Shown: in pieces, positions 6,001 to 8,881 of the stretch
Layout: each line of letters starts with the position of its first letter
How positions within the stretch are numbered: the stretch's first letter is position 1
Origin: a virus
Lineage: Duplodnaviria > Heunggongvirae > Uroviricota > Caudoviricetes
Direction: 5' to 3' (one strand)
Length of the DNA stretch: 8,881 bases
IMG/VR virus record: IMGVR_UViG_2529293214_000003
Location: 1 to 8,881 of that record
Made by a program: the position numbers

Positions 6001-8881
6001 AACCCAGGTGAAACAAACATCCTGCCATCAGCAAGAATCAAGTACATACGTTCTCTGGATAGATGGAAAATCTATTGGATGCGGAAGGATATGAAATGGC
6101 ATCAGTACAGTACTGAACTTTCGCTGACTGATGCGCTTGAGCTTGTGCGTGCTGACCCGGATTGCTGCTTCTTCGGATGAGTGAAGAGACATTTGGGTGA
6201 TGGATGGTCGCAGAAGTGCGGCTTTTAATGTAATCGAAGAAAAGTAATCCTTGTAAAACTTGATTTGACTGTATTGTCACAAAGAAAGGAATCAACGATC
6301 GTTTCTTGGGTCTTGATTTGTTTTGACGATCAAATTAGTATTGCCTCATCAACTGTATGAGGCTTTTTTATGCAAACCAAAAGCTACACCATCAAAGCAT
6401 TTCAGGACTTCTTACAGATGCTTCCTGAGCTTGGTATCGTCAATGATGCTACAGCCCGCAATCTCCGTGACTCTTCCCTGCGCCTTCTTACTGTTCTTGG
6501 GTCGGATTTCACCGATGCCGATATCCGTGATTATAGCGTTGCCAACTTAGCAAGTTCGTACGCAGACTCAGCAGAAAGCAAACCCTCTGAATCATCTTTG
6601 CAGGCATACAAAAGCCGGATGCAAAGTGCTATTGATAAATTTATCTCCTACCAGAATGGTGAGATTAATGTGTCAGTTGGTGATGTAAATAAAAAAAAGG
6701 AGCGTAAAAAGATGGCACCTAAGAAGAAGGCGGTAGCTGACGTACAGGTTGGTGTAAAAACATTTGAACTGCCGATTCCATTGCGCGGAGATCTTATCGT
6801 CACCATTGGCAACCTGCCTCGCGACCTGACAAAAGATGAAGCCAAGCGTATCAGTCTGATTGTGGAATCTTTTGCGATGATTGATGGCGGAACAAAAGAA
6901 TAAAGCCCCGAGGGAACGGGGCTTTTTGGGTCGGAAATATATCCAGTATTTCCGAAGTGTATGGAGGATTACCTACCGCTACACCCTTGGCAACCGCAAG
7001 CCAAGGATAGCGGTTCTCCCAACAAACTACAACCTGTTCGGGTAAACAGGCTGTATACAAAAACAGGAGAAAAGCTATGGCTCACGATGTTAATCGCGAT
7101 GACTTCATCTACGAACACGACAAGCCGGTTTATGTGCGCAGTTACTGCCGCATACGTTTCGGTGAGCTCGAACATGTTCGTCAGCACTTCCGCTCTTATC
7201 CGAGCTGCTGAAAATAACTAAATCTCAAACCCGGCCACCGAGCCGGGTTTTCTTTGCCTTACGATCCCCCCACCTAAAAAACATAACCAATTGTATTTAT
7301 TGATGTAACTCGCTAAACCATGCAGTTATGATCCCTGCCCCATCACCTTCATCCTCAACATTTACAAAAATAAAATACCTTTGTTATCCATTATTTATAA
7401 CTTATTTACCATGAATTATAAATTAAGTTATTGACCACACCTATAACCTGGGTTATCTTTAAGCCATCAGCAGGACGCTGGTAGCCAAACGGAACAGATT
7501 GGCAGGCTCTTTAACTTCGATGTGGCGCTGACAAAGCGCAAACAGATACCAAACGAGATGGGTTTGGCGGTGATGTGAATTGCAGCAGCAACGACAGCAA
7601 CCAGAAGATCAGCATCTGGCGCATCACCACCAAAGCCATTTCACATGAGGAAAATATCATGACGGTAATCGTGTACGGGAAATCAACATTCGCAGGAAAT
7701 GCCAAAACTCGCCGTCATGAGCGGCGCAGAAAGCTGGCTATCGAGCGTGATTCCATCTGCAACATCATCGATTCGATCTTCGGCACAGACAGTGAGGAAG
7801 CTGTTCAGGAAGCCCCGAGAAAGCGTTTAAGCCTTTCTGAAAAAGCAATATCACTCGGAAGCCTTCGCTGCAAGAAGTCAAAGTCAGAAGAGGTCGAGCG
7901 TAAACAGAACCGTATTTACTACCGCAAGCCACGCAGTGAAATGGGTGTGACTTGTGTTGGTCGCCAGAAAATGAAATTAGGCAGCAAACCACTTATTTGA
8001 GAGGAATTAATATGTCATCAATCCGCTTAACTACGAGAATGAAAGAGGAAATCGCTCGTAACGCTTTAATTAAGTCCGGGGTGTTCACTGAACTTGAAGA
8101 AGTAACAAAGTTAAAGAACCAGCTTGCACTTGACGCCAGAGTTATTGCGTTTGGCGGTAAAAAGAAAACTGAGGAAGTGGATCAGTTATCATCCAAGTTG
8201 GTAGCTATAAGTGAAGAACTTGGAAAGATGGGATGTTCATTTTACTCATACGATGTTAGTTCTACTTCAATTTATCTGACTGTATCTGGCAGAAGGGTTG
8301 GATGGCATTCATATGGGAAAGACGGCAACGGCAAAGATATATTGCTCCCTACTCCGATCAAAGATAAATGCATGTTTGACGCAGAACACGAAATAACAAA
8401 AAGGTTTGATGAAATCTGCGCATTGCAACAAAAACTTGAAGCCAAGAAAAAGGATATCGAATCAAATGTATGGGCTGCTTTGAACTCAGTCACAACAGTT
8501 AAGCGACTTATTGAAGTTTGGCCTGAAAGCAAAGAATTGCTACCAAAAGAAGCAGATAAAGCAAGTACAGCACTTCCTGCTTTACGGGTAGAAGATTTGA
8601 ATAAGATGATTGGACTTCCTTCCGAGGCCGCATAGTCGGCCTTTATTTTTGGCATAAACAACAGAATAAATACTGCACTGTGTATTCATTCCAACGAGTG
8701 AATACACGGAGCAATGTCGCTCGTAACTAAACAGGAGCCGACTTGTTCTGATTATTGGAAATCTTCTTTGCCCTCCAGTGTGAGGGCCTTTTTATATGCA
8801 TACCAATAACGCTTCACTCGAGGCGTTTTTCGTTATGTATAAATAAGGAGCACACCATGCAATATGCCATTGCAGGGTGGC

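Follow-up and report, generated by a model that had tools for sequence, protein, structure and literature searches.

We analysed an 8,881-nucleotide (nt) stretch of DNA from a tailed phage (Caudoviricetes; IMG/VR record IMGVR_UViG_2529293214_000003, positions 1 to 8,881), referred to here as the window, in order to understand an open reading frame (ORF) of 177 amino acids (aa) that is bracketed by cI and N. The window corresponds to the immunity region of a Shiga-toxin (Stx) phage of the lambdoid group, and the ORF occupies the slot that is held by rexAB in lambda. We find that it very probably opens a mobile accessory ('moron') cassette of two genes, present in prophages and phage satellites of Enterobacterales, in which a 44-aa gene follows behind a terminator and a structured leader. 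Our best explanation for the whole, to which we give an even chance, is a mobile antidote or regulator paired with a small effector, the first gene of which would make two isoforms by internal initiation at codon 115. The coordinates of all features are collected in Table 1.

The linkage of the two genes is most evident from the side of the small one. In a search that started from the 44-aa protein, all 10 of the genomic places recovered have a 175-aa homologue of the large protein directly upstream. Seen from the large gene, the 44-aa gene lies 165-210 nt downstream of the 177-aa homologues in most lineages, and it accompanies even large-protein homologues with only 34-45% identity. Its substitutions gather at third codon positions, indicating a real coding sequence, and it is, together with the C-terminal domain of the large protein, one of the two most conserved pieces of the cassette. 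We are therefore highly confident that the two genes form a linked cassette. The cassette is found in several kinds of slot, including the cI-N interval, positions next to a DUF3024 gene or next to dinI, positions beside tail-fibre or gin regions, and satellites. The 44-aa protein has no credible match in Pfam, NCBIfam or PADLOC and no relative in the PDB, and a word-index search returned only three database clusters for it. Homologues of the small gene are present in Sakai (L003, VT2-Sakai, about 4696-4815, + strand), where an unannotated 40-aa version overlaps the opposite-strand GeneMark ORF VT2-Sap22, which is probably spurious, and in phage Oslo (L081, 3194-3319), where it is annotated as gp51. 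In Enterobacter (L009-L012, around 5001-5800), a 163-aa homologue of the large protein sits in an element that resembles a capsid-forming phage satellite, with an integrase, AlpA and an AAA_25 primase, then capsid, protease and portal genes; this homologue is followed by an unrelated Cys-rich ORF of 46 aa.

The region between the two genes is highly structured. The stem of the intrinsic terminator at the stop codon of the large gene is invariant across the lineages compared, and the leader downstream of it contains hairpins at 6933-6953 and 7033-7050. In the predicted fold, an anti-Shine-Dalgarno UCUCC (7015-7019) pairs with the Shine-Dalgarno (SD) sequence GGAGA (7066-7070) of the small gene, and the AUG is also paired. 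The minimum free energy of the leader is -61.4 kcal/mol (z -5.7), and none of 200 shuffles folds as well. In the alignment of 12 lineages, 96% of cells are paired, and in eight pairs both sides have changed; none of 500 shuffles reaches the observed values, and slid controls are also far below them. The leader (6926-7076) has no Rfam family match at E up to 1, and it may be an undescribed cis-regulatory element. Two barriers thus precede the small gene, the terminator and a fold that masks its SD.

The large ORF is almost certainly a real gene for a protein of two domains. Its coordinates, re-read from the sequence, are right as given in a preliminary description made from the DNA alone, and that description's picture of a self-contained gene with its own promoter and terminator in the immunity region is borne out. 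The protein belongs to PHROG 2602, a phage family of unknown function (E 5.2e-79, residues 1-171 of 173 profile positions), which is found in Stx phages, Salmonella and Klebsiella prophages, and phage satellites. A word-index search gave 53 homologues, all from Enterobacterales, and a profile search of 1.84 billion cluster representatives gave 1095 at E <= 1e-3 and 434 at E <= 1e-10, nearly all of them 155-200 aa long with the same layout; the more than 1000 family representatives are counted at 50% clustering. The 177-aa protein has no credible match in Pfam, NCBIfam or PADLOC, including their toxin, antitoxin and defence models, and no PDB sequence match as a toxin or antitoxin. The UniRef label 'DUF5343' on one Providencia member was not reproduced by hmmscan, and no literature on it was found. 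PHROG 2602 has no Pfam model. The protein had been called unrecognised, a label that no longer applies in full: the fold of its N-terminal domain is now identifiable, and one homologue has a published phenotype (see below).

AlphaFold models divide the protein into three parts, a confidently modelled four-helix N-terminal domain, a disordered linker and a C-terminal beta-beta-alpha unit, in line with the earlier proposal of two domains joined by a linker. The N-terminal domain has, with high probability, the core-binding fold of tyrosine recombinases. Five family members match Phage_int_SAM Pfam models, if weakly, the family profile overlaps residues 76-157 of lambda Int, and the fold comparison list contains IntI4, XerA and the Brujita integrase and, lower down, the recombinase-like phage repressors MrpR and SroF. 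The closest comparators are the core-binding domains of tyrosine recombinases (lambda Int 75-160, PDB 2oxo/1z1b; 3nrw; XerD; IntI4). The 177-aa protein shares with them the core-binding, SAM-like four-helix domain, but it is without their catalytic and arm-binding domains: the module is followed only by the linker and a 40-aa beta-beta-alpha unit, and its own sequence similarity is below significance. Specifically, the catalytic domain (R-K-H-R-H/W-Y) is absent, the protein ending at residue 177 with no Phage_integrase Pfam match, and because of this the protein is not a recombinase. A literature search for stand-alone core-binding proteins returned nothing useful.

The linker is Lys-rich in the window allele, and across the family it measures 23-61 aa and is net positive in 83% of members; that of the Sakai/Oslo type is acidic. 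The C-terminal domain was modelled confidently by AlphaFold2 only with a deep alignment; with 145 aligned sequences, strands at 131-139 and 142-150 and a helix at 155-167 were obtained at a predicted local distance difference test score (pLDDT) of about 84. Between lineages, this domain is 75-83% identical in nucleotides versus 90-100% in amino acids, and it is under very strong purifying selection. Recent recombination as the cause of this conservation was ruled out, since the synonymous sites have diverged. The domain matches nothing known in the searches made: Foldseek against BFVD gave nothing at E <= 0.001, and a profile search of the PDB with the C-terminal domain alone gave chance-level matches only (E >= 0.3). 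Short beta1-alpha1 stretches of RNA-recognition motifs appeared in the latter search at chance level and are not counted as evidence.

We next consider the internal start. The preliminary description had pointed to an AAGGAG with an in-frame ATG (Met115) 9 nt on, and this reading is exact; the product that it gave as 62 aa is wrong in length, as Met115-Glu177 spans 63 residues. The 63-aa family PHROG 36396 matches residues 115-177 (E 6.8e-46). In the window sequence alone, the motif is not beyond chance, with two AAGGAG-N5-10-ATG found versus 0.42 expected and 12 of 200 shuffles reaching two, and its weight comes from comparative data. The SD duplex energy of the internal site is -8.1 kcal/mol versus -5.6 kcal/mol for the annotated start, and across lineages the internal duplex (-7 to -8 kcal/mol) is likewise stronger than that of the annotated start (-5.6 to -6.9 kcal/mol). 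A strong SD with an in-frame ATG, GTG or TTG is present in the linker of 17 of the 20 lineages, in 14 of these 17 at a distance of 14-15 codons ahead of the C-terminal domain, and such pairs are about 10-fold denser there than elsewhere in the gene (Fisher p 1e-8 over the 20 lineages, uncorrected for phylogeny).

The conservation is sharpest within the clade of 177-aa proteins, for which DNA came from E. coli, Salmonella, Yersinia phage YP3, Klebsiella and metagenomes. Every clade member for which DNA was obtained has SD-N9-NTG, and the linker follows the pattern AAA AAG GAG CGN (AAN/AGA) AAN NTG. The Symbiopectobacterium lineage (L017), which reads AAG AAG GGG CGG AAG AGA ATG, retains both the SD and the start codon. 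Conservation of codons at this site exceeds that of the peptide. Only 8 of 113 scorable columns use a single codon, columns 110 (AAG, 10/10) and 111 (GAG, 9/9) being two of them, and column 115 is GTG in all seven lineages with Val, ATG in two and TTG in one, compared with gene-wide shares of 39% for AAG among Lys codons, 39% for GAG among Glu, 27% for GTG among Val and 15% for TTG among Leu. In other words, the residue at codon 115 varies between Met, Val and Leu, and the codon is always start-capable. Distant subfamilies with a different linker have candidate starts at ATG117 (L039), ATG114 (L054) and ATG95 or GTG93 (L013 and L042), and the unrelated acidic linker of the Sakai/Oslo type has GAGGA-N7-TTG114 and GAGGAGGAAGAAGAA-TTG113 in the same place. 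Stand-alone C-terminal ORFs of 62-69 aa occur in public records of Serratia, Proteus and Gilliamella, the short ORF having been called as a gene repeatedly by annotators and by PHROGs. The comparative evidence for a functional internal initiation site is moderately strong, and we lean slightly toward the site being functional. The earlier suggestion of internal initiation has thus gained a conserved SD and start in 17 of 20 lineages, and its two products are predicted from this conservation.

The same arrangement is known from other genes. In-frame internal initiation gives rise to isoforms in Tn5 transposase and its inhibitor, lambda C/Nu3, T7 gp4A/4B, and E. coli IF2, ClpB and CheA, and in Tn5 the short form modulates the long form. 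As in these genes, the 177-aa ORF has a conserved SD at suitable spacing from an in-frame, start-capable codon at a domain boundary, and the short product would be a complete C-terminal module. Two products are known in those cases, whereas here they are read from conservation.

Three other accounts of this part of the gene have to be weighed against internal initiation. The plainest, to which we accord a real if lesser probability of about one in three, is that only the full-length product is made, with AAGGAG and NTG as by-products of a basic peptide (KKERKK-V/M/L) and of shared ancestry. It agrees with the chance-level occurrence of the motif in the window, with the abundance in the linker of Lys, Glu and Arg, residues with SD-like codons, and with the relatedness of the lineages, three of which are without the feature; the short ORFs in databases could all stem from frameshifted or mis-called genes. 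Against it stand the invariance of AAG GAG in genes that otherwise mostly use AAA and GAA, the GTG codon of Val115 in 7/7 lineages when the other Val columns of the same genes use GTT, GTA or GTC, the retention of a start-capable codon as the residue changes, and the presence in an unrelated acidic linker of an SD and TTG at the same distance from the C-terminal domain. The other two accounts concern the run of eight A (A8), which direct reading confirms and which had been put forward as a potential slippage site. In frame it reads AAT AAA AAA AAG GAG, and its heptamer A_AAA_AAG is among the most shift-prone in E. coli. Programmed recoding here, by -1 frameshifting or transcriptional slippage, would give, in the manner of dnaX gamma, a 112-aa N-domain protein (residues 1-110 plus Gly-Ala), and ribosomes might then reinitiate at ATG 6712. 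As in dnaX, the identical heptamer stands in the correct frame, the -1 frame terminates quickly (GGA GCG TAA, stop at 6705-6707, 4 nt before the ATG), and an SD-like GGTGA (6679-6683) lies 9 nt upstream, near the position of the stimulatory SD of dnaX; AAA AAG is also kept in 9/10 clade members. In contrast to dnaX, there is no significant or conserved 3' stem-loop, the folds of 6685-6760 and 6699-6750 being no better than shuffles (z -1.0 and +0.27), and homologues share neither the -1-frame stop nor the GGTGA ahead of the heptamer. The full heptamer is present in only 3/10 clade lineages and A8 in one, the others reading GCG/GAC AAA AAG, and the conservation of AAA AAG is equally explained by the overlapping internal SD. 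We therefore consider programmed recoding improbable.

Phase variation, in which slipped-strand change between A8 and seven A (A7) would split the gene into N- and C-terminal ORFs, is less probable still, and we reject it. Among 15 IMG/VR copies of the exact context, 12 have A8, three have A7 and none has nine A (A9). The three A7 copies come from two or more haplotype backgrounds, a C-terminal product could still be made from the internal start in the A7 form, and PHROG 36396 exists as a 63-aa family. However, the A7 contig L057 (IMG/VR 2531839178_000008) lacks one nt of an A-run within cI as well, at the place aligned to window position 5374, and other draft contigs have indels in G-runs, so that homopolymer sequencing error is the likelier origin of A7; homopolymer indels in draft assemblies such as L057 are unreliable. 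In addition, all six of the complete E. coli genomes that carry the window allele match the full 651-nt query at 99.5-100%, four of them at 100%, with one gene annotated, and the tract is missing from other lineages. A scan of metagenomes for the A-run context found nothing, and a scan of species genomes found three loci only. An A8 run is also unremarkable in the window by composition (1.64 expected; 134 of 200 shuffles hold one). The run is best seen as a lineage-specific by-product of Lys codons, at most with low-level slippage that is probably incidental, and the idea of a designed slippage site is not supported.

The promoter of the cassette scores 8/12, under the threshold of a promoter scan that had no hit above it. 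The same -35 and -10 elements with 17-18 nt between them, 27-33 nt before the ATG, are present in at least nine lineages (L004, L017, L033, L035, L039, L051, L052, L055 and L071), in which the upstream genes are unrelated (DUF3024, dinI, cI, dam or a PerC-like gene). The transcription start is predicted near 6348. The hairpin CCTCA(T)/(A)TGAGG with its T-run is kept in L004, L017, L033, L035, L039, L051, L055 and L071. This hairpin resembles an intrinsic terminator, one that would stop transcripts coming from cI and DUF3024 and insulate the cassette. With a start near 6348, inside the 5' arm, the cassette mRNA would lack the hairpin and read-through from cI would terminate. We also considered the hairpin as an operator for the 177-aa protein; it is invariant where present and holds the SD, and an RNA terminator or SD hairpin is the simpler explanation. 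Two GATC (Dam) sites, at 6297-6300 and 6328-6331, lie 31 bp apart and flank the -35 element, a geometry (31-32 bp) that is repeated in L051, L052, L071 and L017. The pair suggests that the cassette promoter may be under Dam methylation or SeqA control.

Table 1. Features of the window, in order of position.
Feature	Position	Strand	Details
cro, cII, O, DnaB		-	
cI	5064-5801	+	immunity region
DUF3024 gene	5839-6180	+	between cI and the 177-aa ORF
Sigma-70 promoter (predicted)	6313-6341	+	-35 TTGATT 6313-6318; 17-nt spacer; -10 TAGTAT 6336-6341
Upstream hairpin	6343-6369	+	GCCTCAT..ATGAGGC + T6; 3' arm holds SD GAGG (6359-6362) of the main start
Coding sequence of the 177-aa protein	6370-6903	+	PHROG 2602 family; annotated YP_009907965.1
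N-terminal four-helix domain	6391-6654	+	residues 8-95; tyrosine-recombinase core-binding (SAM-like) fold
Linker	6655-6756	+	residues 96-129; Lys-rich in window allele, KKKERKKMAPKKK; pLDDT below 50
A8 run and heptamer	6691-6699	+	A8 6691-6698; in-frame dnaX-type heptamer A_AAA_AAG 6693-6699
Internal initiation region (candidate)	6697-6702, 6703-6711, 6712-6714	+	SD AAGGAG; 9-nt spacer; ATG, codon 115
Internal ORF	6712-6903	+	predicted 63-aa C-terminal product (MAPKKK...GGTKE); PHROG 36396
C-terminal beta-beta-alpha domain	6757-6876	+	residues 130-169; most constrained part of the protein
Intrinsic terminator at stop codon	6902-6930	+	AAAGCCCCG..CGGGGCTTTTT + T-run; stem invariant across 12 lineages
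Structured leader of the 44-aa gene	6926-7076	+	covariation support
44-aa partner gene	7077-7211	+	PHROG 21154; MAHDVNRDDFIYEHDKPVYVRSYCRIRFGELEHVRQHFRSYPSC; third-position substitutions
Intrinsic terminator ending the cassette	7227-7256	+	
N	about 7650-8000	+	
Nmad5-domain gene	7952-8635	+	after N; Pfam E 4e-71

ECs1184 (ORF23 of the Stx2 prophage Sp5; VT2-Sakai orf22, NP_050521) is the only family member with experimental data. This homologue is 39% identical to the 177-aa protein and has the same two-domain layout, the same cI-N slot and a diverged small partner gene downstream, but it belongs to another subfamily, with an acidic linker, no A-run and a candidate internal start at TTG114. 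When in-frame markerless deletions were made across Sp5, those of ORF23 and ORF21 were not obtained (Mondal et al. 2016, PMC5155283). These were the only two early-region Sp5 genes that could not be removed; the authors, who found no conserved domain, concluded that the genes are probably needed for stable lysogeny and that their loss 'appears to be lethal to the host' (PMC5155283). In a 2025 study in Nucleic Acids Research, ECs1184 was among the RNA-associated proteins recovered from enterohaemorrhagic E. coli Sakai, at a false discovery rate of 0.065 (PMC7618764), showing that the protein is made in lysogen cultures.

In the explanation that we put forward for the whole cassette, the first gene would yield the full-length protein and, from codon 115, a C-terminal isoform of about 63 aa, with the basic tail and the C-terminal domain and without the N-terminal domain. 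The full-length protein would bind nucleic acid through its N-terminal domain and linker, and dimerise or bind a partner through its C-terminal domain. It would act as the antidote or regulator of the cassette, restraining the 44-aa product or its expression, and the short isoform would tune this activity. We hold the antidote or regulator role only tentatively. It would explain the failed deletion of the homologue ECs1184, and it is the reading that best fits a mobile pair, a DNA-binding-type fold, a repressed small gene, the failure to delete a homologue and locations in accessory or defence slots taken together. Type II toxin-antitoxin and addiction modules offer the closest parallel, being likewise mobile two-gene cassettes in which the first gene combines a DNA-binding-type N-terminal domain with a small C-terminal domain, modelled with confidence here only from a deep alignment, and the second is a short gene under tight repression; in the present case, a homologue of the first gene could not be removed. 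A linked pair on mobile elements is thus found in both. The differences are a terminator and a 150-nt structured leader between the genes, with no translational coupling, and the placement of neither cassette protein in a known toxin or antitoxin family.

Several observations weigh against this proposal. The terminator parts the two genes, unlike in a classic toxin-antitoxin operon, and neither protein matches a PADLOC, Pfam or NCBIfam model of a toxin, antitoxin or defence protein. DNA binding by the N-terminal domain is suggested by the modelled fold alone, and the 44-aa product is not known to be toxic, its role as an effector being putative. The 44-aa gene is missing beside the homologues in Yersinia phage YP3 (L002) and in L039-41, and the satellite type has the unrelated Cys-rich 46-aa ORF in its place. 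The failed deletion of ECs1184 is a negative result, obtained with a homologue that is 39% identical, and its cause is not established; ECs1184 was also 'not a strong' RNA binder in a polynucleotide kinase labelling assay (PMC7618764). As to the two isoforms, which are predicted for the window allele from conservation, no good internal start is present in three lineages, namely L009 and L018 (both of the satellite type, capsid-forming and like the phage-inducible chromosomal islands) and L019. Moreover, the lineages are related, so the codon statistics overstate their independence, and purine-rich Lys/Glu linkers generate SD-like strings by themselves.

The main alternative for the function, less likely in our judgement, is that the protein is a trans-acting DNA-binding regulator or exclusion factor in the lysogen, such as a second repressor or a decoy for a recombinase site, and that the 44-aa gene is a mere neighbour. 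The slot between cI and N resembles that of rexAB, some homologues are without the 44-aa gene, and a role in the maintenance of lysogeny was suggested by the authors of the Sp5 deletion study (PMC5155283). The likeness to lambda rexAB and other 'morons' between cI and pL/N extends to an autonomous unit with its own promoter and terminator and to the recovery of the ECs1184 homologue from lysogen cultures, but RexA and RexB have no sequence or fold relation to the 177-aa protein. A phage-specific repressor would be a misfit for a cassette that also turns up well away from immunity regions, namely next to dinI, in satellites and beside genes for tail fibres or gin. The strict linkage seen from the side of the small gene (10/10 places), and the fact that the C-terminal domain and the 44-aa gene are the most conserved pieces, also speak against a mere neighbour. 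Going further along the antidote reading, we entertain as a doubtful but specific idea that the cassette is a new kind of mobile addiction or defence system, in which a recombinase-derived fold in two isoforms controls a structure-locked, basic 44-aa protein; loss of the first gene would kill or destabilise the lysogen, and the promoter may read Dam methylation via its GATC pair.

The gene order in the remainder of the window is given in Table 1. Escherichia phage SH2026Stx1 and a Stx1 phage both match the interval 5800-7600 at 100% identity, and the window allele of the 177-aa gene is present in 6 of 5426 complete E. coli genomes. The DUF3024 gene matches the PADLOC phage-defence candidate PDC-S43 (E 7e-42), on which a literature search gave nothing useful; a DUF3024 gene again adjoins the 177-aa homologue in L051, and a remnant is present in Sakai. 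Downstream of N lies a gene with Nmad5, a nucleotide-modification-associated domain. The DnaB-type helicase ORF (720-3113, - strand) encodes 797 aa, whereas the otherwise related SH2026Stx1 record has a helicase of 458 aa and, after it, a gene for an HNH endonuclease, and the roughly 340 extra amino acids look like an intein-type insertion. At 8844-8881, the Rfam family Lambda_thermo (cIII thermoregulator) matches with 47.7 bits (E 5.5e-9), clipped by the end of the window.

No function has been assigned to the large family of the 177-aa protein, yet attempts to delete one member from the Stx2 prophage Sp5 failed. The cassette is now resolved into its parts, namely a protein with a core-binding fold, a conserved start inside the gene for this protein, a linked gene for 44 aa and a leader that masks the SD of the latter, and recognition of the cassette turns the result with ECs1184 into a specific, testable hypothesis. 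Given the conserved internal start, the 'fragments' of 62-69 aa in public records may be real products, which bears on annotation. If the antidote role is true, toxin-antidote biology would gain a new pair of protein folds, and the cassette would bear on the stability of Shiga-toxin prophages.

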